Positions 24,922-47,754 of a stretch of 64,000 nt of DNA are shown in pieces. The position numbers and the translations under genes are program-made. The stretch's first letter is position 1, and the number at the start of each line of letters is the position of its first letter. The notes beneath the pieces are model-generated. The model was not told the origin of the DNA and made no database searches. It saw only the letters and a program-made list of their open reading frames with translations. Source of the stretch: an uncultured Ignavibacteriaceae bacterium (GTDB taxonomy: Bacteria; Bacteroidota; Ignavibacteria; UBA10030); the NCBI GenBank assembly GCA_964473365.1, contig CAYYOV010000009.1:7630-71629 (forward strand), read 5' to 3'.

Positions 24922-25601
24922 ACGTGGTCTCGCTCATCCCTCGAGGCCTCATCGTTTCCTGTCAGGCCGAAGACGACAGTCCCTTCAACGCACCGCCGTT
25001 CATTGCCGCCTTTGCCCGGTCCGCCGAACTTGGTGGGGCAATCGCCCTTCGTTTGCGCGACATCGACAATGTAGTGGCTGTGCGGAAGCATGTTCGACTT
25101 CCGATCATCGGCATCACGAAGGGCGCGTATGCTGATGGGAGCGTGCTGGTAACGCCGAGCCGGGATGACGTCGCACAATTGTTCGCTTCCGGAGCCGATC
25201 TCGTCGCGGCGGATGTGACCGATCGAACCGGGCCGGACGGCATCCATCGGCTCGAGTGGTTCCGGAGTGTTCGGCGCGAGTTTGCACAACCGTTAATGGC
25301 GGACGTCGCGACCTACGACGAAGGGATCCGCGCCGCTGAGGCGGGCGCTGACCTTGTTGCTACAACGTTGGCGGGCTACACACCCTCGACCGCACGATCT
25401 CGAAGGGATGTGCCTGACTTTGAGCTGATCGAACGGCTCGCGAAAGACCTGCCTGGAAAGGTGGTTGCCGAGGGAAGGGTCTGGACGCCGGAACAGGCCG
25501 CGCTTGCGTTGCGCCTTGGTGCCGTGGCCGTCGTCGTTGGGACAGCGATCACAAGACCGATTGACATCGTAAAGCGATTCGTGTCATCGCTGAACCGCTG
25601 A
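24918..25601 (+). CDS. nanE: N-acetylmannosamine-6-phosphate 2-epimerase
   Basis: GLIVSCQA, PIIGITK (catalytic Lys), LMADVAT, ATTLAGYT, VAEGR, VVVGTAITRP. GTGA overlap with the GH38 stop. Confidence 0.93.
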   Translation: MNVVSLIPRGLIVSCQAEDDSPFNAPPFIAAFARSAELGGAIALRLRDIDNVVAVRKHVRLPIIGITKGAYADGSVLVTPSRDDVAQLFASGADLVAADVTDRTGPDGIHRLEWFRSVRREFAQPLMADVATYDEGIRAAEAGADLVATTLAGYTPSTARSRRDVPDFELIERLAKDLPGKVVAEGRVWTPEQAALALRLGAVAVVVGTAITRPIDIVKRFVSSLNR

Positions 25602-27614
25602 CCGCTCGAAGACCATCGCGGCAGCGCCGAGCAGTCCCGCATCCTCAAGGTCTGAGAACAGGACCTTCGCTCCCCCCCGCTGCACCTTCATGGCGGTCTC
25701 TTCGTATCGCTCCTGCAACGCATCGAAGTAGATCGCTCCGCTCTTCAAGACGCTCCCGCCCAGCACGACCGTATCCGGGTTCAACACGTTCACAAGGCTC
25801 GCCAAGGCCGCCCCGAGCGCAGCGCCACCATCTCGGAGGACCTGTTGCGCCGGTCCGTTCCCGCCCGCCGCTTGCCTCGCGACTTCATCCGCCGACCAGT
25901 CGTAGCCTGCGGCTTTCGCCCGCCTCGCAATTCCAGAACCGGAAGCATACAGTTCAACACAGCCTGCCCCGCCGCAGGAACATCTGGGACCGTCGGCGTC
26001 GACGCTGATGTGACCGATCTCCCCCGCCGCGTTCTCGGCCCCGCGCACGAGTTGGCCATTGACCAGAAGACCACCCCCGATGCCCGTTCCCACGCGAACG
26101 ATCAGCGCGTGCGTTGCACCGCCTGCCTTTCCAAACCGCACTTCAGCCATCGCCGCACAATGTCCATCATTGTCGACCCACGCAGGCAAGCCAATCTCTC
26201 GCTCGATGATCATCGCTAATGGCACGTCTGCCCAGCCGCTCAGCAATGCCGTCGAATCGAGGATGACGCCGTTCTCATGATCGACACGGCCTCCCGTGCT
26301 CACTCCGACACCACGGACGCGACGTTGCCCGGCATTCCTGGCCGCGCGACGGACGAGTGCAAGAAGCGCGACCTCGATCTCTTCGCGTCCGCCGGGAGTC
26401 GGGACCGCTTCGCGTGCCTCGATGGTCCCCTGCATGGTCACTACGCCTGCACGCAGATGCGTGCCCCCAAGATCGACTGCGACTGCCACGTCACCCTGTG
26501 ATTCCTGGACGACATCGGCTCCGGCCGGAGGGATCGAAGGCTTGATCTGATAGTCGCCCTTCACGAAGTGATAAATGTCCTCATAGAATTCCCGTTCGCG
26601 CGGATCGCTGTGCCCGATCATTTTCCGAAGCGAGCCAACCCCTTGGAAGTGTGCACATGCTGCATCGCGCATGTAGCCGTACGTTACGCCACCATTGAGA
26701 TAGTCACGGAATCGAGAGTGCCGTTCTGATGTGATCGCGATCGGCTCGTCCAATTCGAGGTAGTACTCGATCTCGATCCCGGCATAGCGCTGACGCGCCG
26801 CACGGGCTGCTCCCTCGATCGTCTTTCCCGATCGATAGAACATGTAGTTTGGCTGGAGGAAGGCCAGATCGAAATAGTACGCGCGGTAGTCATCGAGCAA
26901 ATGGACGTTGTATGTCGACCAGAACGGGATCCACGAGGTCTTGAGTCCATGGCGATGAACGTGTTCCCGCAACTCTTTCAGGAGCCAATGGTCATCCACC
27001 TCCCAACTCCGGTAGACCGTCTCGAACATCCAATAGACGCCGAGGAGGTGGACGTGCTTCCATGTGCCTTCGTTCCATCGACGCACAATCTCATCCACGA
27101 ACCACTTTTCGGCCGCCAGACGTTGTTGCGTGGCCTTCATCAGGTTCTGTGTCCCGATCCCGAAGTCGAGTTCTGGTCCGTCCGGCACCAGCCGCCCCCA
27201 TCGGCGTTGCGAAATGTGCGGATAGGGCAGCATCAGGATCACATTTCGCTGGTGCTCCGGAAACGAGCCGATCTCTTGTCCACAGCGCTCGATCGTCTGA
27301 TCGAGCGTGGCGACCGCTCCCGTAGGCCCCAGATAGAACTCAAGCAATGCTTCCCAGTCCTGTTTCGACGCCGGATGAGGAGACACCATTGCAAAGAAGT
27401 CCCCTTCCCCCGACATCGAGGTCCCCAGGTTCACATCCGCAGACAGATCTCGACCCGCAGCCGCTTTCACATTCAGGAAGAGAAAAGAATCGAATAACCA
27501 GTCGTCAGATCGACTGTTGGCCCCCTGATGCGCGACGTAGTAGCGAAGGTCGTCTTCTGTCCATGGGCGCTCGACTCCGCCATACATCAACATGAGATGG
27601 CGGAGATGGTTCAT
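25584..27614 (-). CDS. Fusion of DUF4855-like (putative glycoside hydrolase-like TIM barrel) and ROK sugar kinase (ManNAc-kinase-like)
   Basis: The N-terminal ~360 aa has DUF4855-like motifs (LMYGG…RPWT, DWLFDSFLFL, WIPFW, FDLAFLQPNY, GIEIE). The C-terminal ~300 aa is a ROK kinase (AVDLGGT, VDNDG, GTGIGGG, GEIGH…CSCGGAGCVE). One continuous frame. Confidence 0.8.
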   Translation of the reverse strand: MNHLRHLMLMYGGVERPWTEDDLRYYVAHQGANSRSDDWLFDSFLFLNVKAAAGRDLSADVNLGTSMSGEGDFFAMVSPHPASKQDWEALLEFYLGPTGAVATLDQTIERCGQEIGSFPEHQRNVILMLPYPHISQRRWGRLVPDGPELDFGIGTQNLMKATQQRLAAEKWFVDEIVRRWNEGTWKHVHLLGVYWMFETVYRSWEVDDHWLLKELREHVHRHGLKTSWIPFWSTYNVHLLDDYRAYYFDLAFLQPNYMFYRSGKTIEGAARAARQRYAGIEIEYYLELDEPIAITSERHSRFRDYLNGGVTYGYMRDAACAHFQGVGSLRKMIGHSDPREREFYEDIYHFVKGDYQIKPSIPPAGADVVQESQGDVAVAVDLGGTHLRAGVVTMQGTIEAREAVPTPGGREEIEVALLALVRRAARNAGQRRVRGVGVSTGGRVDHENGVILDSTALLSGWADVPLAMIIEREIGLPAWVDNDGHCAAMAEVRFGKAGGATHALIVRVGTGIGGGLLVNGQLVRGAENAAGEIGHISVDADGPRCSCGGAGCVELYASGSGIARRAKAAGYDWSADEVARQAAGGNGPAQQVLRDGGAALGAALASLVNVLNPDTVVLGGSVLKSGAIYFDALQERYEETAMKVQRGGAKVLFSDLEDAGLLGAAAMVFERSAVQR

Positions 27615-27712
27615 TGAAGGCGACGATTGAGGGAAATACGGCATGGACTCCTTCTGGAGCTAACGAATGATCATGAGTCGTGGTTTCGAGCACGGCCGCG
27701 GGGGCCTCCAAG

Positions 27713-29899: not shown

Positions 29900-29912
29900 G
29901 GGGTACTGTTAG

Positions 29913-31488: not shown

Positions 31489-32880
31489 TCAGAGCCTCGC
31501 CCCGAGTCGTTTGAGCTCCGCACGCAATGCAATGCCATCGACCTTTCTCAACGGGATCTTCGCACTCAGAGACATCGCCGCTGCCACTGCAGCCGCTTCC
31601 CCCATTGCTCGGCAGTTCGACTGGATCCGGATAGAACTTTGCGCCTCGAACGAGGCGGAGAGACACCGACCCGCCACCAATACGCCCTCTACGCCGAGAG
31701 GGACCAGACATCGATACGGCACCTCATGATATTCGCCAGGCGGCAATTTCGTCATGCCGGCCCGATCATCACTCGGGTCCCGATGGACATCCAACGGGTA
31801 GTTGTTCCGGAGTATGGCATCCGGGAATTTCGCCGCTCCCAGCACTTCTTCGGTCGTCAGATAGTATTCTCCCCTGATGCGACGTGATTCCCGCACGCCC
31901 ACCATCGGCGCCGACATCACAAGATACGCCCGCTCGCAGCCCGGCAGGTACTTCCGGCAGAAGGTCACATAGCGCCCGATGATCTCTCGCCCCTTGATCT
32001 GGGCCTGGGTCAAATGCCGCACGTCCGTTCCATCCACATCTTCTCGGATCCGGGGACAATTGAACGCGAGTTCATTCGGCCGGCCCGCCATCGAGAACAC
32101 CTGGAAGTAGTCCCCGTCGCGCTCTTTTAGCACGCCATTCGTCACAGCCTGTCGAAAGATCGGTTCCAACGACCATCCTTTTCCCCATACCATGGCGGTG
32201 TGGACGAGCAACACATCCGAGCCTTCTGCCACCTCCATCACGTCGTGTCGCCCAAGCGAACGGAGGAATTCCGCGAACCGCTTCAGATCGACGTTGCCGA
32301 GATGGAACCTGACCGAGAACGGCTGATTCCGGCCGGTCATCGGATCGCCCTGCTCGACCTTCACACCGGCCCTGTATGCGACATCCGCGTCACCCGAGGC
32401 ATCGATGGTACGCTTCGCCTTGATGAAGCCGCGACCGGACTTGCTCAGCACGACAACGCCTGTGATCGCCCCACTGTCCACGACGGAATCCTCAAACATC
32501 GTGTAGTATTGGATCTCCGAGCCCGCTTCAATGACCATCTGCTCGAGGACGTACTTGAGCGATTCAGGATTGAACCAGCCACGGTTGCCGTCCCTCCACA
32601 CGCCAGACTCCTGGACGGCGTTGAGCTTCCGGTTGATCTCCAGATCGATACCGCCATTCAACGGCTCCCCTCCGATCTGATTTGGCATCATGGGAGTCAC
32701 GAGGGCGCCGGTCTGAGTTCCGCCCAGGGCCCCAAATTGCTCGACAACCAGCGTCCGCAACCCCTGGCGGCCTCCAGCGATCGCCGCTACGGCACCTGAC
32801 GTACCACCGCCCACGACGAGCACGTCGACGTCAGCAATGGTTGGAATGCGTTGATCACGGATGTCTGACAAAGCGAGCAT
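31489..32880 (-). CDS. FAD-dependent oxidoreductase (PF12831-like)
   Basis: DVLVVGGGTSGAVAAIA…LVVEQFGALGG Rossmann motif, IDASGDADVA, GVRESRRIRGEY, YEVP-like HEVPYRCLVP, LVAGRCLSA. Confidence 0.88.
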   Translation of the reverse strand: MLALSDIRDQRIPTIADVDVLVVGGGTSGAVAAIAGGRQGLRTLVVEQFGALGGTQTGALVTPMMPNQIGGEPLNGGIDLEINRKLNAVQESGVWRDGNRGWFNPESLKYVLEQMVIEAGSEIQYYTMFEDSVVDSGAITGVVVLSKSGRGFIKAKRTIDASGDADVAYRAGVKVEQGDPMTGRNQPFSVRFHLGNVDLKRFAEFLRSLGRHDVMEVAEGSDVLLVHTAMVWGKGWSLEPIFRQAVTNGVLKERDGDYFQVFSMAGRPNELAFNCPRIREDVDGTDVRHLTQAQIKGREIIGRYVTFCRKYLPGCERAYLVMSAPMVGVRESRRIRGEYYLTTEEVLGAAKFPDAILRNNYPLDVHRDPSDDRAGMTKLPPGEYHEVPYRCLVPLGVEGVLVAGRCLSASFEAQSSIRIQSNCRAMGEAAAVAAAMSLSAKIPLRKVDGIALRAELKRLGARL

Positions 32881-37438: not shown

Positions 37439-40400
37439 CAGAACGTGAACCCGACGGAGAGGAACATCTGTCGCGGGATGTTCCGGTAGGCTTTGTAGGG
37501 CGCCGCGATGTGGCTGAGGCGCAGCGGATCGTCCCCTGGATCGGCCACCGTGAATCCGCGTTCGACCCAGTTGTTCCGGTCGACCTGGGCGTCCATCGGG
37601 GTCAGCCATTGATTATTGAACAGATTCATGATCCGGGCGCCGAGGATGACGTCCCGACCGAGCATGTGGAGGGTCTTGACGATGTTCAGATCGACGCTCG
37701 TTTCGATAGGATACCGCCTGTTGTAGAGCACGTCCTGGACGTCAAAATCGGTGACGTACGTGAACGGAAGACCCGACTGGGCAGCGTATGTCAGGCTCGC
37801 GGTCGTATTCTCGAACGGCGAGATCCCCGCGATCTCCACACCTTCCCCCTCACCCAACCGGTACTGCACCAGGGCGCGAAGGACATGCGTCCGGTCGGAC
37901 GGAGAGATGAATTCGCCCGTGAAATTGCGGGACGCAAATGCCGTCACCCCTGCAGGGAACTGCTCTTGAGGGCCATAGTTCCCTTCCGTCGTCTGCGACA
38001 GGTTGTAGCTGACACGGTAGTGCCACCGGGCGGGCGCAATACGCTCGAACGTGATCTCGATGCCTCGCGTCGACCCGAACGCATTGTTCGAGAAGGTCGT
38101 ATAGAGATACAACGGAGTATTGTCCGGCAGGACGCCCCTCGGACGATCGGCGCTTCCCGTCAGCGCCGCAACCCGCAGCAGCCCGATCTGGCTCACGCGG
38201 TCGTTGTAGTATACCGCCACGTCGAACCGATGGTTCTCGCCCACCACCTGCTGGATCCCGAACTCGTAGTTGATCGTCTTTTTCGGCTCCAGGTTCGGAT
38301 TTCCCCGACCCGTCCAGCCGCTTTGGGTGCGCTGGGATAGCGCATGCGAGAAGATCGGCATGGAAGCAAAATGTCCATACTGAATGCGGAACGCGGTATT
38401 CTCGCCGATCGGGAACGACAGCCCCAGTCGCGGCATGAGCACGGTGCGCGTCTTGGACGCAACCGTTTGCGGATCGCCGACATAGTTCGGCCGGACATTG
38501 TTGCTCAACGTCCCCTGGTAGAACGGGTCGAAGAGATCGACCGCCACATCCTCCTGGAAATTGTACGCCTCTGCTCTCAAACCAAAATTCGCGACGAGCC
38601 CTTCATACTCCATCTTGTCCTGCGCATACGCCGAGAGAAGCCAGGGGTATGCTTTGTAGTATTCCGCAAAACCCGACCGGAAGAGATACGAATTCGCCTG
38701 GAACGAGGAATTGACGCCGTTGTTGACCATGTCCCAGTAGTAGCCGCGGAGACCGACTTTCAGCAGGTTCGAAGAAGTGATCTGGTTGGTGTAGTCGACG
38801 GAGACGGAGACGTGCTCCGTTCGATTGTACTGGTAGTAGTTCGTGCTGAAGTTGAACGGCTCCCGAAAGTACGATCCGTCCCACCACACTCCTTGGCGCA
38901 GTACGCTGCCCGACGCATCGTTCAGACTGTCGAGCCGGTCGCGTGCCGACTCATATCCTGCCAGATATTCGTACGGCAATTCGTATGTTTCCATCTGGTG
39001 CGACGCCGTCACCTCGACGAACGAATGGGTATCGATGGTATAGACCCAGTTCAGGCTCTGCGTGAACGTCTCCTCCGTCCGGACCGGATCTGTCTTGATG
39101 TAGTATTTCGTCGAAATGCCCGGTGGGCTGAAGGCCAGGCCCGACCAGCGGATATCGTCTGAACCGGACCAGATCCCGCCGCGATATCGCTGGTACATGC
39201 CGAGGAGCTTGAACTTGTGCGCCCGGACCGGCGTGTAGATGATATTCGTCAGGTAGTTCTGGAAGACAAGGTTCTGCTCGGAAGTCGGGAGACGCGTGGG
39301 GGCGGTTCGATACTCTCCCGAGAAGAAGAAGCGAAGCAGGTCCGGATCGCGGGTCAGAGGGCCGCCGAATCCGACGAGGTAGCGGGTGTACATCCCTTTC
39401 CGGTAGTCATAGACGCCGAGCGGATTGTCGTCGCTCGGAGTGTGGTTCTTCAGCCACACGTCGTAGGCCCAGGCGGCCTCGCGGACCACCACATCACGCC
39501 ACGCGGCGGAATCCGCCGACGACGCCGTACCTGTCTGATACATCCTGTTGTAGAGTGCAGACGCCCTCGTATTCAGGCCGAGCTGGTCTGCAATGAGCCG
39601 AAGGTCCCGGATCCAATAATTGAAATCCCCCCAGCGCTGCCATTCGTAGCTGTTCCGGTCGTAGACGTACGGTCCAAAGTGGTATTGGCCCGGCGGGCGG
39701 ACCTCCATCCGAAATTCGCCGTTGAACCGCGGGCCCCCTTCCTTTGAGACCACCTTCACGACACCCGCCTGCGCATTGCCGTACTCTGCCGAGAAACCTC
39801 CAGAGATCAGCTGGACCTGCTGCACCGCGATCGGGTTGATGTCGAACTTCCACGAATTGTCCGCCTTGCTTGTCCCAAACGAACCGGGGGCCGTTGTCGA
39901 CGAATTGATCTGCTGGACTCCGTTGATCTGGTAGTTGACTTCGTACGCACCCGACCCGCGGACGCTGTAGTTCCCCTGTGCGTCCTTCTGAAAACCGGCC
40001 ACCAGATCGAGCGCGCCCCGGATGCCTTCCATGGGAGCCGATTTCAGCTGCGACTCCGTGATGCTCTGCGACGTCGACGTCTGGTCACGGATGACCTTCG
40101 GCCGCTCGGCTGTGACGATCACTTCCTTCTGCTGGATGGTGGCATCCTCAAGGCGGAGTATCAGGTCCGTTGTCCGGTCGATGAGGATCTCCACACCCCG
40201 GACCGTGGTTCGGTTGTATCCCAGCATGGATCCGACGACCTGATATGTGCCCGGCGGAATGTTCAGGATGGTGAACCGACCCTCGAAGTCGGTCGCCGCT
40301 CCAAGGGTCGTTCCCTGGAGGAACACGTTCGCACCGATCAACGGCTCCTGGGTCCGAACGTCCATGACGACGCCGGAAAGCTTTCCCCGCTGTCCCTGCG

Positions 40401-40461
40401 CATGGAGCACCGCCATGCTCAGGAATATGACGATGGTCCCTATGACGACACGAAGCGACAC
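37438..40461 (-). CDS. TonB-dependent receptor (carboxypeptidase-regulatory-like N-domain, plug, barrel)
   Basis: GKLSGVVMD…EPLIGANV…GAATDFEGRF.I.NIPPGTY, VTAERP, VQLISGGFSAEYGNAQAGVV plug, GNPNLEPKKTINYEFG, and C-terminal PRQMFLSVGFTF. Confidence 0.92.
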   Translation of the reverse strand: MSLRVVIGTIVIFLSMAVLHAQGQRGKLSGVVMDVRTQEPLIGANVFLQGTTLGAATDFEGRFTILNIPPGTYQVVGSMLGYNRTTVRGVEILIDRTTDLILRLEDATIQQKEVIVTAERPKVIRDQTSTSQSITESQLKSAPMEGIRGALDLVAGFQKDAQGNYSVRGSGAYEVNYQINGVQQINSSTTAPGSFGTSKADNSWKFDINPIAVQQVQLISGGFSAEYGNAQAGVVKVVSKEGGPRFNGEFRMEVRPPGQYHFGPYVYDRNSYEWQRWGDFNYWIRDLRLIADQLGLNTRASALYNRMYQTGTASSADSAAWRDVVVREAAWAYDVWLKNHTPSDDNPLGVYDYRKGMYTRYLVGFGGPLTRDPDLLRFFFSGEYRTAPTRLPTSEQNLVFQNYLTNIIYTPVRAHKFKLLGMYQRYRGGIWSGSDDIRWSGLAFSPPGISTKYYIKTDPVRTEETFTQSLNWVYTIDTHSFVEVTASHQMETYELPYEYLAGYESARDRLDSLNDASGSVLRQGVWWDGSYFREPFNFSTNYYQYNRTEHVSVSVDYTNQITSSNLLKVGLRGYYWDMVNNGVNSSFQANSYLFRSGFAEYYKAYPWLLSAYAQDKMEYEGLVANFGLRAEAYNFQEDVAVDLFDPFYQGTLSNNVRPNYVGDPQTVASKTRTVLMPRLGLSFPIGENTAFRIQYGHFASMPIFSHALSQRTQSGWTGRGNPNLEPKKTINYEFGIQQVVGENHRFDVAVYYNDRVSQIGLLRVAALTGSADRPRGVLPDNTPLYLYTTFSNNAFGSTRGIEITFERIAPARWHYRVSYNLSQTTEGNYGPQEQFPAGVTAFASRNFTGEFISPSDRTHVLRALVQYRLGEGEGVEIAGISPFENTTASLTYAAQSGLPFTYVTDFDVQDVLYNRRYPIETSVDLNIVKTLHMLGRDVILGARIMNLFNNQWLTPMDAQVDRNNWVERGFTVADPGDDPLRLSHIAAPYKAYRNIPRQMFLSVGFTF

Positions 40462-40468
40462 AGTCAGA

Positions 40469-41890: not shown

Positions 41891-41984
41891 GGCTGTTCTC
41901 CTCTGAATGTCACCATCGCCGACGGATGGTGAGGTCCTGTGAAAAGATAGATCGATTTCGATGGTCCAATGCGACGCCTTATCG

Positions 41985-43982
41985 TTACCGCACGTAGAGT
42001 GCCCGCTGTACCCGGCGGCGCTCCAGTAGTGCACGTCCGGAGACCTCTGTGACGCGAAGTTCGAAGAAGTAGACGCCCGAAGCGAGCGCCCGTGGTTCCC
42101 ACGTCCTCCGATGCGACCCCGCATCCATCCGTCCTTCGACGAGTGTTTCCACCAAACGTCCCACGACGTCATAGACCGTCAGTCGGACATCAGCCGCATC
42201 GCTGAGATCGAACGCAATCGTTGTCATCGGATTGAACGGATTGGGGTACACGGGATGGAGGGTGAATGTTGTCGGTGGCGCGATCGCCATCTCCCTCACG
42301 GCCGTCGTACCTCCCGGAGACAATCGACGATTCCGAAGCAGCATCAATTCGTCGCCGACGACGTTCTTTCCTGCGCCGATGCCCGCGTTCGTGAGGGTCA
42401 CCACGACGCGCGGCCCCCCCGCTGGGAGCATGACGTCCCCCAGTTTCGTCCATCCGGCATTTTCAGCGGCAGCCTGGTCGATGGTCACGGTCCGGAGCGA
42501 GGATGACGTATCATGCAATCGGTACGTTGCTGTCGGCGTGAGCGCATTGAGCCCCGTTGGAATGTACGCATAGAGCTCATAGACGCCCTCCTCCGGAACA
42601 CTTGCCAGGTAGTGCATGGTGTCTGCCCCGGCTGCGTCGGCGTAGAAGACCGAGCCGTTCCAGCCGGAGACGAAATTGACCCCAACAAAACCGGTCCGGG
42701 TGGCGGATGAATCCTTCGCGAAGGTCGGGGCCGAACGCCAGCCCGCCTGTCGGTGAGGAGGTGTGACGTACGTTGGGTAGACCTGGTTGCGCAACGGCAC
42801 CATGTAGCCCGCATCTCGCAGATCGTTGTAGTACCACCACGCGTGGCCCTTCAATCCTGCATTGCGGCTGACCTGGACCAGATTGACGCCTTCGGTGAGC
42901 GAGAACAGGGTGCCGCTCGGTTTGATGGCGATGCCGGCATTCACCCTCTGCTGCGAGGCGCTGCTGAGGCCATAGAGCGCTGACGGGATGTATCCCTGCA
43001 GGACAGAGGAAGGCTGATACATCTGCACTTGCGCCGCGTCTAGTTTCCCCAGTTCTAACCAAGCCTTCCAATCCTGGAGGACATTGTCGTAGGCTGGATA
43101 CGACCCCAGACCGGAGGCGTAATGGCTGGGGGCGTTCGAGACGATCACGTTCGGGTTCACCGCTTTGATCGAGTCGTACACCGCAGCGTGGAACGTGACC
43201 AGTTGGTCCGCCCGCCAACGCTTCCAGGCCGCATTCGTGCCATCGATCGGAGGAGCGCTGCCGGTCGCGGCGGTGTACTTGACCACCGATGCGCTGTCGT
43301 AGCCGAAGTTCACATTGGGATAGCGGATCCGATCCAGCTCGATACCGTCCACATCATACCGACGGGCGATCTCTTCATGCAGTTCGAGCAGAAAGGACCG
43401 GGCATCGTCATTGTTGTGCGCCAGCCAGTAGAAGAAGATCCCGCCTTCTGGATTGCCGATCAAGTCGTTGCCTGAGGCGTCCCTCCCCAGCCACGACGGG
43501 CGACGGTCGAACAATGGGCCTTTCGGAAGACCCGGCAACGAGTAGCCCGACCACCATCCCGCGAAGCCGTATTCCATCCAGGCCTCGATCTCGAGCCCGT
43601 TGCGGTGCGCTTCGGCGATCGCCTCTTGCAGGATGTCCCTATCGCCCGCGGCCGGATCCGTGTAGTAGCCGGTCTCCCGGAAGAAGACATCGCTGCGGAA
43701 GAGCGGGAAGCCTCGGCTCCAGGCATTGAAGTACACGACGTTGAAGTTGGACGCCGCGATCGTGTCCATGGTCCGCGCGATCTCGGCCTTAGTCCAGAAG
43801 CTTCCTCCTGTCCTCGGCGTGACCCAGATCCCACGTAGTTCTTGCGCCGGGAGCGGGAGCGAAACAAGCAGAAGTGCGAGAATCGCGCTCAGACCGGCGC
43901 CTGCGCGCATAGCGCGTGGCATGCGAACGCGTGCACGCATTCGGTGCGTTCGGAGGCCAGTCGAGTGTGCGAGGTTCATCAT
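41985..43982 (-). CDS. Glycoside hydrolase-like family 10 (GHL10/DUF187) protein with golvesin/xanthan-lyase-CBD-like domain and T9SS CTD
   Basis: ELRGIWVT, FNVVYFNAW, EAHRNGLEIEAWMEYG, YDVDGIELDRIRYP, QDWKAW, QVQMY. Accessory domain GVYELYAY…GWTKLG…VVGD. CTD YPNPFNPMT. True start may be downstream (~43909). Confidence 0.85.
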   Translation of the reverse strand: MMNLAHSTGLRTHRMRARVRMPRAMRAGAGLSAILALLLVSLPLPAQELRGIWVTPRTGGSFWTKAEIARTMDTIAASNFNVVYFNAWSRGFPLFRSDVFFRETGYYTDPAAGDRDILQEAIAEAHRNGLEIEAWMEYGFAGWWSGYSLPGLPKGPLFDRRPSWLGRDASGNDLIGNPEGGIFFYWLAHNNDDARSFLLELHEEIARRYDVDGIELDRIRYPNVNFGYDSASVVKYTAATGSAPPIDGTNAAWKRWRADQLVTFHAAVYDSIKAVNPNVIVSNAPSHYASGLGSYPAYDNVLQDWKAWLELGKLDAAQVQMYQPSSVLQGYIPSALYGLSSASQQRVNAGIAIKPSGTLFSLTEGVNLVQVSRNAGLKGHAWWYYNDLRDAGYMVPLRNQVYPTYVTPPHRQAGWRSAPTFAKDSSATRTGFVGVNFVSGWNGSVFYADAAGADTMHYLASVPEEGVYELYAYIPTGLNALTPTATYRLHDTSSSLRTVTIDQAAAENAGWTKLGDVMLPAGGPRVVVTLTNAGIGAGKNVVGDELMLLRNRRLSPGGTTAVREMAIAPPTTFTLHPVYPNPFNPMTTIAFDLSDAADVRLTVYDVVGRLVETLVEGRMDAGSHRRTWEPRALASGVYFFELRVTEVSGRALLERRRVQRALYVR

Positions 43983-45202
43983 TCTTTCATCTCAGACACG
44001 CCGTTGGCGCGTGATGGCTTAAAGAGATCATACAGTACAAGTCCCACGGCACCCAAGACCACTCCGTCACTCTGGAGCTGTGCGGGCCGGACTGATACTG
44101 CTTTGGCCGGTTCCGTCAGCAGATCGCGACCGATCTTGCGTTGAACTGCCTGCGCCACGCGAGGATCTCTGGCGATCGAGCCGCCCAGGACGATCACTTC
44201 CGGATTGAGCATGTTCACTATGCCGATACACACGATCGCGATGATCGTCGTGGCTTCGTCGATGACACGCGCCGCCAACGCATCTCCGTCAGCAGCGGCA
44301 CGGTTGAGTGCGTCAACAGTGATGATCGAGCGATCGCCCCCGGTCCGATAATACGCACCCAGGACAGATGTGTCGCCGAGCAACTCGCCCAGGTCGCGTT
44401 GTCCATCGTAGAGCAGCGGAAAATGGTCAGGCCGCGTCACGGTGTGGCCGACCTCATTGTAGCCGATCTCTCCCGCACTCGATGTCGTGCCGTGAAGAAT
44501 CGTTCCATCGACGATGATGCCGGCCCCGATACCGTCACCGATCCAAAGGAAAACCTGATCGGGAACGTACTTGCCGGCGCCGAACAGATATTCGGCAAGG
44601 GTCATGACCTTGACATCGTTCTCGACGTAGACCGGGAGGCCGAGCCGCGAGCCGAACGCCGCCTTCAGATCTGTCCCTTTCCAACCCTTCAATGTGTCAG
44701 CGACGCGCAAGATCCCGCGGTCGCGGTCGATGATGCCCGGAAGTCCGATACCGATGCCGACGGCGTGCTCGAACAATTCGGGATAGAGTATGCGCCAGGA
44801 TTCCAGCTGCTCAATCGTCCGGCCGATGACAACCTCGGAAGGTTCGCCGGGAGCATAGTCAAAGGAAGCACGATGCAGGATGGTCGGATTCAGATCGCTT
44901 GCGATGAGGTGCACGGACCGCATTCGGATGTCGATCCCGAACACCGTTCCTGCGCGAGGATTGAATCGAAGGAGTTCGCGTTTGCGTCCTCCCCGGTGTG
45001 TGGAGGTCCCTTCCCCAACAAGCTCGAGGAAGCCGAACTCAAGAAAGCGTCCGACGATCTCCGTGACCGTGGTCTTTGAAAGGGAACAACGCTGGGAAAT
45101 CTCCGTGCGGGAGATAAGATCTGAATCCCGAACTAACCGCAGGACGCGGTATTCGTTCGGTTCGTCAAAAGCGTTTCTGCGCTCAGTGAGTGCGCGCCAC
45201 AT
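43979..45202 (-). CDS. ROK family transcriptional regulator (NagC/XylR-like)
   Basis: N-terminal HTH (ISRTEISQRCSLSKTTVTEIVGRFLEFG…GGRK), GIGLPGIID, PVYVENDV, GDGIGAGII, AGEIGY, NPEVIVLGG. Confidence 0.92.
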   Translation of the reverse strand: MWRALTERRNAFDEPNEYRVLRLVRDSDLISRTEISQRCSLSKTTVTEIVGRFLEFGFLELVGEGTSTHRGGRKRELLRFNPRAGTVFGIDIRMRSVHLIASDLNPTILHRASFDYAPGEPSEVVIGRTIEQLESWRILYPELFEHAVGIGIGLPGIIDRDRGILRVADTLKGWKGTDLKAAFGSRLGLPVYVENDVKVMTLAEYLFGAGKYVPDQVFLWIGDGIGAGIIVDGTILHGTTSSAGEIGYNEVGHTVTRPDHFPLLYDGQRDLGELLGDTSVLGAYYRTGGDRSIITVDALNRAAADGDALAARVIDEATTIIAIVCIGIVNMLNPEVIVLGGSIARDPRVAQAVQRKIGRDLLTEPAKAVSVRPAQLQSDGVVLGAVGLVLYDLFKPSRANGVSEMKE

Positions 45203-45223
45203 TGGAGGGCCGCTGTTGGGGAA

Positions 45224-45248
45224 TTAGTTTGTCACCCTGACGAACAAA
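45224..45248. promoter_or_regulatory. Putative ROK-repressor operator (25-bp imperfect palindrome)
   Basis: TTAGTTTGTCA-CCC-TGACGAACAAA, with 9/11 arm symmetry. It resembles Firmicutes XylR operators (TTAGTTTGTT…AACAAACTAA) and overlaps the predicted transcription start. Confidence 0.65.
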
Positions 45249-45251
45249 CCA

Positions 45252-45280
45252 AATATGCCATCCTGAAGCCGTTCTGTCAA
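45252..45280 (-). promoter_or_regulatory. Sigma70-type promoter for the ROK regulator operon
   Basis: Minus strand TTGACA-17 nt-CATATT, with an extended -10 TG. Confidence 0.7.
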
Positions 45281-45392
45281 GTTAATTCCAGGCCGCTCTG
45301 ATCTCACAAATGGGAATCGTAGTGAGACGACTCGATTCGCTTCCCTCCTCCTGACTTGCGCTCACGACTTTGCAAGCGCTCCACCAGGAACT

Positions 45393-45536
45393 CAATCACT
45401 CCAATACCCCACTACTCCACTGCTCCACTACCCCACTACTCCACTACTCCACTACCCCACTACTCCATTACTCCACTACCCATTACCCCATCACTCCACT
45501 ACCCCATTACTCCATTCCTCCACTCCCCCCATTACT
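45393..45536. repeat. Degenerate 8-bp tandem repeat array (~17 units, consensus CCACTAC[T/C])
   Basis: ccaatacc ccactact ccactgct ccactacc ccactact ccactact ccactacc ccactact ccattact ccactacc … It begins at the stop codon of the upstream minus-strand gene. Confidence 0.9.
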
Positions 45537-47754
45537 CATCCACCACAACCATGATCGTGTTCGCCACGGGCCTCTCTCCGGTCCGGTCAGACGGGCTATT
45601 GACGATCTCTCCTCCTACCAACATCGTCGTAGAACCCCCACCGTCGAGATTCACGGCGTTCCAGACACCGATCGACCGAAGAAACCGGCTCATCTCCCGA
45701 AAGTTCATTCCGATGCTCGTTGATTGTCGTCCGTCGACCGTACCGAGGAACAATATGGTCGAATCTCTGTTGATGCCAACGAACGACCGCGGGTGCCGGT
45801 CCGTCGTGAATTGGATCCCGATCCCCTCTCTCCGGTGTTCTTCGGTCGTCACCGTTCTTCCATCCCGCACGATCCGTCCGCCGGCACCGACGACCTCCCG
45901 CAATGTGCCTGGACCCGACCAAAGGGGGAACGACACCGATACCGTGTCACCTTTCTGGACATGCACAGCTGGAGCAGCCATCGATGACAAGATCCAGTCG
46001 GTCCCAGCGATCTTCTGGTCGCCAGTGACTTCAACAGACCTGATGACGAACCGGGCACGTCCGTTTGCTATCGGCGTCTCCATGGGGCGCAACACCGCCT
46101 CCCACGTTCCCGCTTTCGAACGCGTACTGCTCCCCCACCGTGCGTTGTAGAGGACCGACGCTGAAGAGTCCAGAACATCATTCACCGCGTGCACCGAAAG
46201 CCCATCTCCTCGAGACGTAGATACGGCACCCGAAAAGCTCATCGGATCCATGATCGGTCGTCCATCCGAGGTCATGCCGAAATGGCTTCGTCGGGATGGC
46301 ACAGCCAGCACGATCTCTCCTCGCGACGCCTGGCTACCGACAGGCCAATGCGTCTTGAATGAGAAGAAGTCGGCATTGACGGCGGCAACCACACGACCTC
46401 CGGCTGCACCTCGCCGCCTTACCTGCTCTGTGGTTGTCCGAAGGCTATCGGCACGGAAGGTCTCCACGCGCACTCCGGCCCGCCGCAGTTCGACCTCCAC
46501 AACGTCCAGCGAGTATGGTCCCTGGCGTGTGAACGAACGATACCGCACCCCCGGACGCAACACCTTCGACTCCTCGAGGTCACGCCACCCGAGTGGGAAC
46601 GTCGCCTTTTGCTGATATACCTCGCGTCTCAGGACATCGAACAGGCCGCCATCCCGAAGGTCGTTGTAATACCAGAACGAATGCCCCGATGGAGTAAACT
46701 GCCTCGCGATCCTGACCAGTTCGACGACCTCTTTCGCCTCCGTCGCCTCGCCCCCGGGTTTGACTGCGAGACCCGATGTTGTGCGGACGCGCAATGATTC
46801 GGGCAAGGGTGCGACTGCCGCTCGCACATATTTCCGAAAGTCCGCGGGCCGGCCATACATCTGGATCTGAACGAGATCGACCGATCCATCCTTCAGCCAC
46901 TGCCTCCAATCCTGAAGATATTCCTCATACGATCCGTACTCCTCCCCCGTCGTATAATGTCCGGGAGCGTTCGAGACCATAACCCGCGGATTGGCCTTCG
47001 TGATCCGCTGGTACGCCATGCGATGGAATTCAACAATGCGGTCAGCCCTCCACCGCATCCAGGCTGGCTCCGACGCGTTGCTCGGAGGCGCAGCCCCGCC
47101 GTGTGAAGCTGCGTAGATTGCGGTGGTTAGCGAATCGTATCCGCAGTCATGCTTCGGATACCTGACCCGATCCAATTCGATACCGTCAATATCATAGTCC
47201 GCGGCAACCTCGGCGTGAAGGTCGGCAAGGAAAGATTGCACAGCCGGCTGACTGTGTGCCATCCAGTAGAACACCCCGAGGTGGCCGCTCGGGAACTCTG
47301 CGCTCCCTTTCGAGTCGCGCGCCAGCCATTCAGGATGCTTCCTGAATATCGGTCCGAGCGGAAGCGAATCGATCTGATTGCCAGACCACCATCCGACGAA
47401 GCCGTACTCCATCCACGCTTCGACATGCAACCCGACGGCATGAGCCTCTTCGACGGCCTCAGCGAGGATGTCACGGTCGCCTGCAGCCGGATCGGACGCG
47501 AATCCGAATTCCCGACGATAGAGCCGGCTCTGCCAGAGCGGCCAACCGCGGGACCACGCCAGAAAGTAGACCGTATTGAAGTTCGCGGCGGCCGTTTGCT
47601 GCATTGCCGCACGGATCTCTTCGCGCGACCACAGGCGGGGTCCTTCACGCGGCGTCATCCAGAGGCCCCGGAGTTCTCGTTCCTGGGAAATCGATGCCCC
47701 TGCGAGGCTCAGGAGGAGCATGGCTACCAGCGCAGGGCGTTTGAGGGAGTTCAT
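45532..47754 (-). CDS. Fusion of GHL10 glycoside hydrolase-like domain and phosphodiester glycosidase (NAGPA/DUF2233) domain; signal peptide, no T9SS CTD
   Basis: N-terminal ELRGLWMTP…EAWMEYG…DGIELDRVRYP. C-terminal AAVNADFF…RHPRSFVG…VDGRQ…NLDGGGSTTM…ERPVAN. Start at MNSLKRP (47754). Confidence 0.85.
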   Translation of the reverse strand: MNSLKRPALVAMLLLSLAGASISQERELRGLWMTPREGPRLWSREEIRAAMQQTAAANFNTVYFLAWSRGWPLWQSRLYRREFGFASDPAAGDRDILAEAVEEAHAVGLHVEAWMEYGFVGWWSGNQIDSLPLGPIFRKHPEWLARDSKGSAEFPSGHLGVFYWMAHSQPAVQSFLADLHAEVAADYDIDGIELDRVRYPKHDCGYDSLTTAIYAASHGGAAPPSNASEPAWMRWRADRIVEFHRMAYQRITKANPRVMVSNAPGHYTTGEEYGSYEEYLQDWRQWLKDGSVDLVQIQMYGRPADFRKYVRAAVAPLPESLRVRTTSGLAVKPGGEATEAKEVVELVRIARQFTPSGHSFWYYNDLRDGGLFDVLRREVYQQKATFPLGWRDLEESKVLRPGVRYRSFTRQGPYSLDVVEVELRRAGVRVETFRADSLRTTTEQVRRRGAAGGRVVAAVNADFFSFKTHWPVGSQASRGEIVLAVPSRRSHFGMTSDGRPIMDPMSFSGAVSTSRGDGLSVHAVNDVLDSSASVLYNARWGSSTRSKAGTWEAVLRPMETPIANGRARFVIRSVEVTGDQKIAGTDWILSSMAAPAVHVQKGDTVSVSFPLWSGPGTLREVVGAGGRIVRDGRTVTTEEHRREGIGIQFTTDRHPRSFVGINRDSTILFLGTVDGRQSTSIGMNFREMSRFLRSIGVWNAVNLDGGGSTTMLVGGEIVNSPSDRTGERPVANTIMVVVDE

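Follow-up and report, generated by a model that had tools for sequence, protein, structure and literature searches.

A SusD-independent, two-module gene cluster probably used for amino-sugar glycan uptake in Ignavibacteriota

The 64,000-nt stretch of DNA analysed here (the window) comes from a high-GC Ignavibacteriota bacterium and contains a genuine, conserved gene cluster, which probably serves the capture, import and digestion of an amino-sugar cell-envelope glycan. Its 13 genes (positions 25584–47754) all lie on the minus strand, and Pfam and NCBIfam models recovered every component that a first-pass annotation, made from the letters alone, had named there (Table 1). Taken jointly, the evidence leads us to favour, with moderate confidence, a polysaccharide-utilisation-type locus made of two modules, one for import and one for cytoplasmic catabolism of an amino-sugar glycan. 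In place of SusD, the locus appears to use a secreted surface protein that docks on a PorQ-like barrel. We found no description of either module in the literature, in which the outer-membrane import module is undescribed.

Table 1. Features of the cluster and its convergent neighbours, in window coordinates
Feature	Position	Strand	Evidence
GHL10+NAGPA fusion, 740 aa	45532..47754	-	PF02638 155 bits, PF09992 121 bits; Sec signal peptide
Intergenic tandem repeat	45390..45537		TRF
Sigma-70-like promoter and palindromic operator	45227..45280	-	Conserved layout upstream of ROK regulator
ROK-family regulator, N-terminal winged HTH (NagC/Mlc type)	43979..45202	-	PF00480 137 bits; HTH_24/MarR
GHL10 + Golvesin_C + T9SS type-A CTD	41985..43982	-	PF02638 143 bits, PF25275, PF18962 30.5 bits
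T9SS cargo, 473 aa	40469..41890	-	TIGR04183 28.9 bits vs cut-off 23
TBDR: CarboxypepD_reg + Plug + barrel	37438..40461	-	Pfam
Partner, 696 aa	35348..37438	-	Signal peptide, novel beta-sandwich region, FN3, PorZ-like CTD
PorV/PorQ-family outer-membrane barrel	34419..35351	-	NF033709 182 bits vs cut-off 90
brl244, small outer-membrane beta-barrel protein	33688..34422	-	Family matches to PF13505 OMP_b-brl; signal peptide
brl239, second small outer-membrane barrel	32972..33691	-	Remote paralogue of brl244 (hhalign)
PF12831 FAD-dependent oxidoreductase (flavoprotein)	31489..32880	-	355 bits
Inner-membrane permease, 495 aa	29995..31482	-	Homologue names from sources
Hydantoinase_A/ASKHA-fold ATPase (HydA-like), 728 aa	27713..29899	-	PF01968 193 bits, PF05378 93 bits
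DUF4855 TIM barrel fused to ROK sugar kinase	25584..27644	-	PF16147 207 bits, PF00480 205 bits
NanE, ManNAc-6-phosphate 2-epimerase	24924..25601	+	PF04131 177 bits; NF002231 241 bits vs cut-off 189
GH38 alpha-mannosidase-family enzyme, cytoplasmic	21802..24921	+	Four GH38 Pfam domains

We infer that the genes are co-transcribed. Of the overlapping stop/start junctions described in the first-pass annotation, four were confirmed, that of the TBDR and Partner genes (1 nt) and those of Partner with the PorV-like gene, the PorV-like gene with brl244 and brl244 with brl239 (4 nt each); a fifth, of 4 nt between the ROK regulator and the secreted GHL10, requires translation to start at the first ATG. 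The GH38 and NanE genes, also claimed as neighbours, converge on the low-coordinate end of the cluster: NanE starts 3 nt past the stop codon of GH38, and its last 18 nt are shared with the 3′ end of the DUF4855–ROK gene.

The ROK regulator aligns over its full length with Mlc and NagC and scores under the equivalog cut-offs. Upstream of it, a promoter (TTGACA, a 17-nt spacer, CATATT) is directly followed by the palindrome GGTTTGTTCG-N6-TGACAAAC, the single site of this kind in the window. The identical layout precedes the ROK regulators of loci L001, L015 and L076 (47–75% regulator identity), and the remaining spacer sequence is not conserved among the upstream regions compared; conservation across these four loci, the window included, supports the operator that had been proposed for the repressor. 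The NagC/Mlc-type repressor would bind this single palindrome, which lies over the promoter of its own gene, and a 19.6-kb transcription unit is probably under its control. The nearby tandem repeat (16 copies of the 8-nt unit ACTCCACT, or six of a 24-nt unit) did not turn up in the 200 nt preceding the L001 regulator and is probably outside the system.

The whole cluster is carried by L001 and L002 (both 89%) and by L003 (72%), and because synteny is conserved in these close relatives we regard it as a functional unit, not a chance adjacency. The outer-membrane half extends much further and keeps its gene order and orientation in some 80 genomes of Ignavibacteriota (80 loci were retained, each from a different assembly; the relatives are all MAGs). 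The first-pass annotation had read the region as a single complete pathway. Its functional unit and its lack of SusD stand, and a route ending in the conversion of ManNAc to GlcNAc-6-P is supported, but the single pathway gives way to two modules, an outer-membrane one found throughout the phylum and a cytoplasmic one that varies between lineages. Of the latter, within 10 kb of the Partner gene, the permease and HydA-like genes occur in 21–25 of the 80 loci and the DUF4855–ROK and regulator genes in 5–6.

By synteny, the first module is a conserved unit, predicted to capture glycan at the outer membrane and import it. It consists of Partner (79–80 of the 80 loci), the TBDR (77), the PorV/PorQ-family barrel (75–77), the two small barrels brl244 (70–74) and brl239 (65–70), GHL10 (58) and the T9SS cargo (46). 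Throughout the 80 loci these genes are adjacent and on the same strand (median gaps, −1 to 50 nt), with block identities of 47–91% over the phylum and a core put at 50–60%. No SusD-family protein was found in the cluster, and the TBDR, which has an intact Plug domain (Pfam) and 49–91% identity across its 77 loci, scores 55 bits against a cut-off of 368 for the SusC/RagA model TIGR04056, with its N-terminus alone covered. A SusC-type assignment was therefore rejected, in line with the SusD-independence claimed at first pass.

Partner follows the TBDR immediately in 68 of 76 loci and has an orthologue in Ignavibacterium album JCM 16511 (AFH48728.1). It has no Pfam match and fails the Pfam and TIGR T9SS CTD models. 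Its CTD, the best-conserved region of the protein (77% column identity), matches the PorZ CTD region at E 2e-5 and 23 bits, far under the equivalog cut-off. Foldseek searches with an AF2 model (pLDDT 78, pTM 0.79) gave no global match, only matches to FN3 and to PorZ/PorU CTDs. We propose that Partner is a surface glycan-capture protein and a functional stand-in for SusD, and that the adjacent barrel, nearer to PorQ (120 bits) than to PorV (74 bits) and under both equivalog cut-offs, anchors its CTD. The two further barrels noted at first pass are borne out by PF13505 matches in 11 of 29 members of the brl244 family, whose window protein ends in ...EFLY, and by the remote paralogy of brl239 (hhalign, A5 against A6: 95.7%, E 8.5e-9, 209 columns).

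Distant Partner homologues (E 1e-33 to 1e-44) also lie after a CarboxypepD_reg TBDR and before a PorV-like gene. One such trio (L147) is in a locus with GHL10+CTD and another (L150) accompanies a GH106 rhamnosidase, a kinase and a mutarotase. Because of this rhamnosidase locus, the TBDR–Partner–PorV trio looks like a general SusD-independent platform.

We identified 127 GHL10 genes spread over the 58 loci, and loci reaching more than 5 kb past brl239 mostly have two or three copies. The secreted GHL10 of the window, for which the start codon is uncertain (signal peptide from about residue 24), has C. difficile Cwp19 (5oq2; E 1e-9) as its sole solved relative. DigH of E. coli presumably belongs to GHL10 too. 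Cwp19 is a peptidoglycan lytic transglycosylase (PMC6016235), DigH breaks down denuded peptidoglycan glycans (PMC12288456) and a third GHL10 member, DogH, has reported starch activity (PMC9967864). The GHL10+NAGPA fusion, conserved in L001–L003, is probably periplasmic, as its Sec signal peptide is not accompanied by a T9SS CTD. Its NAGPA domain is restricted to the high-GC lineage and contains the invariant DGGGS motif (NLDGGGST; PMC13474241). PDB matches of the fusion protein include 6ozd, 3ohg, vertebrate NAGPA and Cwp19. The T9SS cargo usually lies just upstream of the TBDR; its family profile gives weak WD40-propeller matches, so that it is probably a beta-propeller, and a candidate surface binding protein or enzyme.

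The cytoplasmic module varies more. The permease gene is where the first-pass annotation had placed an IT permease; it has no Pfam, NCBIfam or PDB match, and its class rests on homologues that their sources name ‘citrate transporter’ or ‘H+/gluconate symporter-like permease’. It occurs in 25 of the 80 loci, always paired with the HydA-like gene (21 of 80), and permease, HydA and NanE recur divergently beside the outer-membrane block in about 20 loci. The HydA-like ATPase has no HyuB partner and matches N-methylhydantoinase and 5-oxoprolinase structures over residues 18–350 only; we propose that it uses ATP to phosphorylate the imported sugar or to open its ring. Full-length PF12831 flavoproteins are found in 6–7 of the 80 loci (10-kb flanks), and a shorter PF12831-like gene in 17 further Ignavibacteriota loci. 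Only 5–6 loci have DUF4855–ROK and the regulator no more than 10 kb from Partner, and 17 loci carry a DUF5009 (HGSNAT/NagX-like) gene.

The DUF4855 model (AF2, pLDDT 90) is a TIM barrel, for which Foldseek ranks GH20 first, then GH18 and GH84, all generic TIM-barrel matches with a TM of about 0.4. Its fused ROK kinase has the human GNE ManNAc kinase domain as best PDB match (199 bits; glucokinase, 138 bits), so the likely end of the pathway is ManNAc to ManNAc-6-P to GlcNAc-6-P. This endpoint is also supported by fusions that may chain pathway steps, DUF4855–ROK in the window, L001–L003, P0157 and P0202 and NanE–ROK in eight loci. The convergent NanE is conserved in L003 and in L096, where GH38–NanE likewise converges on DUF4855/ROK. 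In another phylum, GHL10, DUF4855, the PF12831 flavoprotein, NanE and the ROK kinase recur with a different transporter, an ABC importer: a Thermotogota-type contig encodes NanE–ROK, PF12831, SBP and ABC permeases, a secreted GHL10, DUF4855 and DUF4127, and this enzyme set was seen in 7–9 metagenome loci.

We hypothesize that Partner is exported by the T9SS and that the neighbouring PorQ-like barrel keeps it at the cell surface by holding on to its unusually conserved PorZ-like CTD, just as PorQ does with PorZ in Porphyromonas. Glycan fragments cut by the surface GHL10 would pass to Partner and on to the TBDR, a hand-over that is the job of SusD in Bacteroidia. In the periplasm, GHL10–NAGPA would trim the imported oligosaccharide, its NAGPA domain taking alpha-GlcNAc off a GlcNAc-1-phosphodiester. 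The trimmed product may enter the cytoplasm through the 495-aa permease and be processed by the hydantoinase-like ATPase, the flavoprotein, GH38 and the DUF4855 TIM barrel. DUF4855 would free an N-acetylmannosamine-type sugar, the fused ROK kinase would phosphorylate it and NanE would yield GlcNAc-6-P.

The most likely substrate, we infer, is an exogenous bacterial cell-envelope amino-sugar glycan. Because characterised GHL10 enzymes cut peptidoglycan, our best guess is that it could be peptidoglycan strands, a peptidoglycan-linked ManNAc/GlcNAc secondary wall polymer, or both. The case for a pure peptidoglycan route is weakened by the absence from the cluster of genes for a MurQ-type etherase, NagZ or an amidase, and ManNAc is a minor constituent of most cell walls. 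Teichoic-acid linkage units, secondary wall polymers and capsules are plausible guesses only.

The strong conservation of the core (80 loci in 80 assemblies) could also mean a housekeeping envelope function, as if the locus turned over or dispersed a self-made exopolysaccharide, the secreted GHL10 remodelling the cell’s own PNAG-like or ManNAc-containing matrix or capsule and the TBDR recycling the fragments. A stand-alone DUF4855 in the cyanobacterium Gloeomargarita lithophora, a photoautotroph, points to such recycling rather than foraging, and a Wza-type polysaccharide export gene adjoins the cluster in L082. The PNAG-processing PgaB is, moreover, the closest reported structural neighbour of the Cwp19 GHL10 domain (PMC5765458). 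We nevertheless consider this unlikely: in none of the 80 loci is the core linked to a glycosyltransferase or polymerase gene, the NagC/Mlc-type repressor with a complete import and catabolic route looks nutritional, and one distant trio lies within a clearly catabolic rhamnoside locus. Quite unlikely, too, is an outer-membrane block that forms an envelope or T9SS-associated structural or attachment complex instead of an importer, with its adjacency to sugar genes secondary. That would fit the high phylum-wide identity (47–91%), the concentration of conservation in the Partner CTD, the role of PorQ/PorZ-type proteins as T9SS attachment components and the variable cytoplasmic genes. Yet GHL10 glycanases belong to the conserved block in 58 loci, permease–HydA–NanE stands divergently beside it in about 20, the distant trios are set among glycosidases and sugar kinases, and the TBDR retains its Plug domain.

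A eukaryote-type or mannose-phosphate target (Man-6-P-GlcNAc ‘covered’ N-glycans, phosphomannans or sialoglycans), on which GH38, GH27 and NAGPA would act as in N-glycan processing and from which ManNAc would derive through sialic acid, seems to us very improbable. It would fit the canonical NAGPA substrate, GlcNAc-1-P-6-Man (PMC13474241), the linkage of GH38 to NanE in the window and L096, a GH27 gene adjoining the cluster, and an Armatimonadota contig in which DUF4855 is accompanied by GH38, GH29 and GH2, with GH38 two genes away and one membrane-protein gene between. However, domain searches of the cluster proteins turned up neither a sialidase nor a NanA-type lyase, the GH27 neighbour is not syntenic (0 of the 80 related loci), GH38 is absent from the 10-kb flanks of these loci, which stop short of its position, and NAGPA is confined to the high-GC lineage. 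What stays constant is GHL10, of which the two well-characterised members target peptidoglycan and a third, DogH, reportedly starch (PMC9967864).

Like SusC/SusD loci, the two-module locus places surface glycanases, a TonB-dependent importer and an adjacent surface partner together under a regulator, encodes periplasmic trimming, an inner-membrane permease and cytoplasmic catabolism, and uses one import trio with varying enzyme sets (GHL10 here, GH106 in L150). Unlike them, it has neither a SusD-family protein nor a TBDR that reaches the SusC/RagA cut-off; Partner is no TPR lipoprotein but a beta-sandwich and FN3 protein with a T9SS-type CTD, the PorV/PorQ-family barrel and two small barrels are fixed in the module, and the surface enzymes are T9SS cargo rather than lipoproteins. 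As in the PorQ–PorZ and PorV–PorU pairs of P. gingivalis, a PorV/PorQ-family barrel lies beside a protein with a PorZ/PorU-like retained CTD, which suggests stable surface anchoring by CTD–barrel contact. Here, however, neither barrel nor Partner reaches the equivalog cut-offs for PorQ, PorV or PorZ, their syntenic partners are a TBDR and glycanases instead of T9SS core genes, and the N-terminal fold of Partner is unrelated to the PorZ beta-propellers.

The cytoplasmic end resembles nan-type ManNAc catabolism in its NanE (over the NCBI family cut-off), its ROK kinase nearest to ManNAc kinase, the NanE–ROK fusions of the ABC-type variant and its regulators, which in nan systems are NagC/Mlc or RpiR and are ROK-type in this cluster and RpiR-type in that variant. 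It differs in having no NanA lyase, sialidase or sialic-acid transporter in the cluster, and we propose that ManNAc would be freed by the kinase-fused DUF4855 TIM barrel. The PF02638 domains (143–155 bits) are shared with Cwp19 and DigH/YddW, but here they are T9SS-secreted with Golvesin_C or fused to NAGPA, and their embedding in an import locus would imply foraging rather than autolysis or cell division. The PF09992 domain, with its invariant DGGGS sugar-phosphate motif, is akin to the NAGPA ‘uncovering enzyme’ and DUF2233 phosphodiester glycosidases, but here it is bacterial and joined to GHL10 in one protein; a candidate substrate for it is the GlcNAc-1-P-6-MurNAc linkage found in wall polymers, a chemical analogue of GlcNAc-1-P-6-Man.

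The cluster comprises 13 consecutive minus-strand genes within 25584-47754, in a window with about 60 % G+C (see the table). Scans with Pfam and NCBIfam recovered every component listed in the first-pass annotation, including the GH38-nanE pair described at one side and the GHL10-NAGPA fusion at the other. The overlapping stop/start junctions that it had described number four, each of 1-4 nt, and run from TBDR/Partner through brl244/brl239; the other gaps are 6-95 nt. Here Partner is the protein encoded after the TBDR, and brl244 and brl239 are two small outer-membrane proteins. We infer a single operon, which a promoter and terminator scan of 25-45 kb, yielding no more sites than shuffled sequence, neither supports nor refutes.

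Features of the cluster and of the neighbouring regions of the window
Feature	Position	Strand	Assignment or remark
Amidohydro_3 (N-terminal hydrophobic segment) and SSF sodium:solute symporter	18057-21599	-	operon divergent from GH38
GH38	21802-24921	+	convergent on cluster
NanE	24924-25601	+	convergent on cluster; start 3 nt past GH38 stop
DUF4855-ROK fusion	25584-27644	-	Pfam/NCBIfam
Hydantoinase_A-like protein (HydA)	27713-29899	-	Pfam/NCBIfam
495-aa membrane protein (permease)	29995-31482	-	
PF12831 flavoprotein	31489-32880	-	Pfam/NCBIfam
brl239 (about 240 aa)	32972-33691	-	
brl244 (about 240 aa)	33688-34422	-	
PorV/PorQ-family barrel	34419-35351	-	Pfam/NCBIfam
Partner (696 aa)	35348-37438	-	without Pfam match
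CarboxypepD_reg/Plug TBDR	37438-40461	-	Pfam/NCBIfam
Unknown T9SS cargo	40469-41890	-	Pfam/NCBIfam
GHL10 + Golvesin_C + T9SS CTD	41985-43982	-	Pfam/NCBIfam
ROK + wHTH regulator	43979-45202	-	Pfam/NCBIfam
Candidate operator GGTTTGTTCG-N6-TGACAAAC	45250-45227		directly after CATATT
Sigma-70-like promoter	TTGACA 45280-45275, 17-nt spacer, CATATT 45257-45252	-	upstream of ROK regulator
Degenerate tandem repeat	45390-45537		8-nt unit ACTCCACT x16 or 24-nt unit x6
GHL10 + NAGPA	45532-47754	-	Pfam/NCBIfam
GH27	47843-50227		
Second CarboxypepD_reg TBDR (752 aa, shorter)	50348-52606	-	
Second TBDR with small HMA-like (heavy-metal-associated) ORF just upstream	50348-52978	-	
862-aa protein	53568-56156	-	three cohesin domains, Big_2/He_PIG, T9SS CTD
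1846-aa right-handed beta-helix protein	56233-61773	-	type I dockerin, FlgD_ig/CTD-like tail

Partner has 177 word-index homologues (48-89 % identity), all annotated as hypothetical and none with a Pfam match; where their taxon names are informative, all are Ignavibacteria or Melioribacteraceae metagenome-assembled genomes. A genome scan with the alignment of these homologues gave 80 loci, all from separate assemblies and almost all with an Ignavibacteriota label, in which genes were counted with a tblastn matrix and by clustering of open reading frames. Because many contigs are truncated, the counts are lower bounds. Partner occurs in 79-80 of the 80 loci, the TBDR in 77, the PorV-like barrel in 75-77, brl244 in 70-74, brl239 in 65-70, GHL10 in 58 (127 genes, mostly two or three copies in loci that reach more than 5 kb past brl239) and the T9SS cargo in 46. 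The genes of this conserved block lie adjacent on one strand, with median gaps of -1 to 50 nt.

The cytoplasmic genes are far more sporadic: the permease was found in 25 of the 80 loci, HydA in 21, NanE in at least 14, the full-length PF12831 flavoprotein in 6-7, the ROK regulator in 5-6 and DUF4855-ROK in 5. Conserved synteny had been named as a check on the first-pass annotation, and it is evident at two scales: the whole window cluster recurs in the same order in three loci (89 % for L001 and L002, 72 % for L003), and the outer-membrane block in about 80 Ignavibacteriota genomes. In most other Ignavibacteriota, a divergent operon upstream of the block encodes the permease, HydA, a short PF12831-like gene, NanE and PF12831. 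From these core and accessory counts, the 20-kb region reads as two modules, an outer-membrane one shared across the phylum and, attached to it, a cytoplasmic one that varies by lineage. The domains behind the earlier interpretation stand, and the interpretation itself is supported in part, its complete pathway giving way to the two modules.

We rejected GH27 and the second TBDR as cluster members, each being syntenic in none of the 80 loci; the second TBDR also lacks Partner or PorV-like neighbours. GH38 was likewise found in none of the 80, but the 10-kb flanks stop short of its position. Some loci carry further genes next to the conserved block. A DUF5009 membrane protein of the HGSNAT/NagX-type acetyltransferase family (heparan-alpha-glucosaminide N-acetyltransferase-like) adjoins it in 17 of the 80 (for example, L030:17804-19195), which hints at de-N-acetylated glucosamine residues in the substrate of the system. 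Distant relatives of the Amidohydro_3 protein (34-38 % identity; 6-7 further Ignavibacteriota loci) and of the SSF symporter (26-31 %; 4-5 further loci) are encoded directly beside the block, and the two may serve the system as alternative accessories. Beyond the second TBDR, the 862-aa and 1846-aa proteins look like a cohesin-dockerin pair carried on T9SS cargo in an Ignavibacteriota genome.

The first-pass annotation described the system as independent of SusD, and the outer-membrane proteins bear this out. At E <= 0.01, neither the cluster proteins nor those flanking them have a SusD-family Pfam match, and the TBDR reaches 55 bits against the SusC/RagA model TIGR04056 (cut-off 368), aligning over residues 27-159 only. 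Partner has no Pfam match even at E <= 10. Its AF2 model (pLDDT 78, pTM 0.79) comprises a large beta-sandwich region, a fibronectin type III (FN3) domain and a C-terminal beta-sandwich; Foldseek returned no global relative (TMq at most 0.27) and partial matches to FN3 domains and to the C-terminal domains of PorZ (5m11) and PorU (6za2). Against the PorZ equivalog NF052228, Partner scores 23 bits (cut-off 260) over its last 100 residues only, and it matches neither T9SS CTD model (PF18962, TIGR04183). No other part of the family is as well conserved as this CTD (77 % column identity, compared with 63-66 % elsewhere), a pattern unusual for a mere export tag.

The adjoining barrel passes the PorV/PorQ family model NF033709 (182 bits, cut-off 90) and falls short of the equivalogs for PorQ (120 bits, cut-off 220) and PorV (74, cut-off 250); on these scores it is a family member orthologous to neither, nearer PorQ than PorV. 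Both brl244 and brl239 are predicted outer-membrane barrels: 11 of 29 brl244 relatives match OMP_b-brl, and brl239 is a remote paralogue of brl244 (hhalign 95.7 %), a relationship seen by profile-profile comparison alone, BLASTP between the two being not significant. Recognizable T9SS signals end the secreted GHL10 (PF18962, 30.5 bits, cut-off 27) and the T9SS cargo (TIGR04183, 28.9 bits, cut-off 23), whose family profile gave WD40 matches below threshold and nothing else. The PorQ-PorZ relationship is established in the attachment complex of P. gingivalis. By analogy with it, we hypothesize that Partner would be exported by the T9SS, kept on the surface through contact of its CTD with the PorQ-like barrel and positioned to present glycan to the TBDR.

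Glutamine occupies the likely signal-peptidase site in all eight predicted exported cluster proteins (genes at 32972-47754; for example, ...LSAQ/VESP, ...LHAQ/GQRG and ...AVSQ/PQWR), so that their predicted signal peptides match the 'Q-rule'. This rule has been described as specific to Bacteroidetes and not common to the whole FCB group (PMC5837995).

The TBDR, Partner and PorV/PorQ-like barrel, here called the trio, also occur beyond close relatives. A Partner profile searched against 1.84 billion representative proteins matched 7,529 at E < 1e-3, 2,492 at E < 1e-10 and 121 at E < 1e-30. These include only about six clusters of full-length orthologs; distant homologues of 650-800 aa make up many of the matches, and none of ten scanned has a Pfam match. 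Four contexts of distant homologues were informative. One (L144) encodes OMP_b-brl, a TBDR and a Partner-like protein, and another (L145) a TBDR, a Partner-like and a PorV-like protein. The third (L147) has MurB, MurA, TBDR, Partner-like protein, PorV, TIG, a DUF4397-like T9SS protein and GHL10+Big_5+CTD, and the fourth (L150) has a substrate-binding protein (SBP) and ABC permeases, a CBM9-like T9SS protein, ADH, TBDR, Partner-like and PorV-like proteins, GH106, a PfkB kinase, RbsD/FucU, an aldo-keto reductase and a GH5-like protein. From these contexts, the trio travels with differing enzyme sets, much like SusC/SusD pairs, which suggests a general design. The murB and murA genes, for UDP-MurNAc synthesis, lie directly upstream of the TBDR, distant Partner, PorV and GHL10+Big_5+CTD genes in L147 (3785-20449) and in L148, and this arrangement is thus seen on two independent contigs.

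The cytoplasmic enzymes recur in other phyla. Stand-alone DUF4855 proteins, 45-68 % identical, occur in Bacillota, Thermotogota, Armatimonadota, Sumerlaeia and Gloeomargarita, among others; the gene context in Gloeomargarita is uninformative, and an exact-sequence look-up of the window DUF4855-ROK protein found nothing on record. A Thermotogota-type contig encodes, in order, a NanE-ROK fusion, a PF12831 flavoprotein, an SBP with two ABC permeases, a 985-aa GHL10 with a signal peptide, DUF4855 and DUF4127. Among 39 loci of at least 6 kb in a metagenome scan, NanE occurred in 14, ROK in 14, PF12831 in 12 and GHL10 in 9; NanE-ROK fusions, RpiR regulators and DUF4127 each occurred in 8 of 61 clustered loci. 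The same enzymes thus accompany a TBDR route in Ignavibacteriota and an ABC route elsewhere, which is strong evidence for one pathway. GH38 is linked to NanE in the window and in one related locus (L096), and lies two genes from DUF4855 on an Armatimonadota contig. One Bacillaceae genome (L083) encodes a longer, 560-aa DUF4855 form (15709-17391) next to an SBP/ABC importer and an AXE1 esterase, as well as a 365-aa form among four GFO/IDH/MocA oxidoreductases; the N terminus of the longer form weakly matches F5/8 type C.

The DUF4855-ROK and ROK-NanE fusions together chain three steps. The best solved relative of the kinase domain is the human GNE ManNAc kinase (199 bits, compared with 138 for glucokinases); the domain fails the NanK equivalogs NF047821 (142 bits, cut-off 450) and PRK05082 (152 bits, cut-off 283). 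NanE passes NF002231 (241 bits, cut-off 189) and scores 177 bits with PF04131. On the basis of the fusions, the GNE-like kinase and NanE, we infer that DUF4855 would release a ManNAc-type sugar, the ROK kinase would convert it to ManNAc-6-P and NanE would convert this to GlcNAc-6-P. No NanA lyase, sialidase or sialate transporter was found among the scanned cluster proteins, and the flanking SSF transporter is generic. DUF4855 is predicted to fold as a TIM barrel (pLDDT 90), and its best Foldseek matches are GH20 and then GH18 and GH84 N-acetylhexosaminidases, at TM scores of only about 0.4. An invariant W-x-x-D-D-H and several glutamates are compatible with a glycosidase, short of proof; DUF4855 may instead be a lyase or epimerase. 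The HydA-like protein has ASKHA A-subunit domains only, with PDB similarity ending at residue 350, and a search of the cluster and related loci gave no Hydantoinase_B; our guess is an ATP-dependent kinase or ring-opening enzyme. We rejected homology of its C-terminal half to DUF4127, the protein in a similar position in ABC-type loci, as there is no similarity. The permease had no PDB match in searches with either its own sequence or a profile of 22 sequences.

GHL10 is the enzyme that every version of the system shares. Its window domains score 143 and 155 bits with PF02638 (gathering score 27.9) and have Cwp19 as their only PDB relative (E 1e-9). We take E. coli DigH also to belong to GHL10. 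The two members that are well characterised both act on the glycan strands of peptidoglycan: Clostridioides difficile Cwp19 is a lytic transglycosylase (PMC6016235; structure, PMC5765458), and DigH degrades denuded glycans (PMC12288456). A third GHL10 member, DogH of D. radiodurans, has reported starch activity (PMC9967864). We give an alpha-glucan substrate, as for DogH, little weight, as nothing else in the locus suggests alpha-glucan use. Absence of MurQ, NagZ and amidase genes from the cluster argues against a classical muropeptide pathway.

The fused NAGPA domain (PF09992, 121 bits, cut-off 25) belongs to a family that cleaves alpha-GlcNAc from a GlcNAc-1-phosphodiester. Its NLDGGGST aligns to the DGGGS motif in 6ozd, 3ohg and 6u11, the invariant sugar-phosphate motif of NAGPA (PMC13474241). 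The GlcNAc-1-P-6-MurNAc bond that joins teichoic acid or secondary wall polymer to peptidoglycan would be chemically analogous to the NAGPA target. At one Bacillaceae locus, DUF4855 is accompanied by an MR_MLE enolase-superfamily protein, Peptidase_M55 and an RpiR/SIS regulator. Genes of these kinds often have links with the catabolism of murein peptides and amino sugars, and these neighbours lend weak support to a cell-wall amino-sugar substrate. On the best-supported reading, the substrate is an exogenous amino-sugar glycan from bacterial cell envelopes, which could be peptidoglycan, a ManNAc/GlcNAc polymer linked to peptidoglycan, or both. The specific polymers proposed in the first-pass annotation (such as teichoic-acid linkage units, secondary wall polymers and ManNAc-phosphate capsules) are possible.

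The regulator combines wHTH and ROK domains of the NagC/Mlc type, below equivalog cut-offs. A ROK repressor with an operator had been proposed, and a palindrome conserved at four loci is consistent with this: in L001, L015 and L076 the regulator also follows this promoter and palindrome (consensus GGTTTGTTCG-N5-7-CGAACAAACC), and the surrounding sequence is not conserved across the four. The candidate operator was found by comparing upstream regions, having been missed by an inverted-repeat tool, and is a single site, with no further copies in the window. Its placement supports autoregulation, with probable control of the downstream unit; the upstream GHL10-NAGPA gene would need its own promoter. 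The tandem repeat fills the spacer between GHL10-NAGPA and the regulator promoter; the 200 bases preceding the L001 regulator show no such repeat.

To our knowledge, what is understood of Gram-negative glycan foraging comes almost wholly from the SusC/SusD paradigm of Bacteroidia, and GHL10, DUF4855, DUF4127 and PF12831 have little or no assigned function at present. Sludge, sediments, hot springs and anammox granules are rich in Ignavibacteriota and related lineages. Our literature searches found no equivalent uptake system described for them, no TBDR-T9SS-PorV-type module in work on Ignavibacteria with TBDR, SusD, PorV or T9SS, and no described function for DUF4855, DUF4127 or PF12831. On balance, we favour the view that the locus serves to capture, import and catabolise an amino-sugar glycan by the mechanism described above. 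We advance more tentatively, as a joint proposal somewhat short of even odds, that the trio is a widespread outer-membrane glycan import architecture and that GHL10, DUF4855, PF12831, NanE and the ManNAc kinase form a cross-phylum catabolic pathway. The architecture may serve SusD-less, T9SS-bearing bacteria, with T9SS anchoring in place of lipoprotein anchoring, and the pathway may yield GlcNAc-6-P from peptidoglycan or from a bacterial wall polymer that contains ManNAc.

If the proposed architecture is real, outer-membrane glycan capture would have evolved in a second way, and nutrient import would be tied directly to the type IX secretion system. The enzyme set gives GHL10, DUF4855, DUF4127 and PF12831 a pathway context that ends at ManNAc-6-P and NanE, and suggests that bacterial cell-wall necromass, a major store of carbon and nitrogen, is recycled by a route so far unrecognised. 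The cultured Ignavibacterium album JCM 16511 encodes a Partner ortholog (AFH48728.1, annotated 'Fibronectin type III domain protein'), which makes the model directly testable.

The locus resembles a canonical SusC/SusD polysaccharide utilization locus in its co-localised two GHL10 genes, GH38, ROK/NagC-type regulator and conserved candidate operator, but has neither of the defining components, a SusC-type TBDR and an adjacent SusD lipoprotein. Its anchoring logic is like that of PorQ-PorZ, although its proteins fail the PorQ and PorZ equivalog models. The end steps, NanE and a ManNAc-type kinase, resemble those of the nan pathway, but without NanA, and compared with the HyuA/HyuB hydantoinases and oxoprolinases, the window protein has the A domains without a B subunit. 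The locus would therefore be a TBDR-based glycan utilisation locus of which the import trio and the enzyme pathway, if confirmed, would be new.
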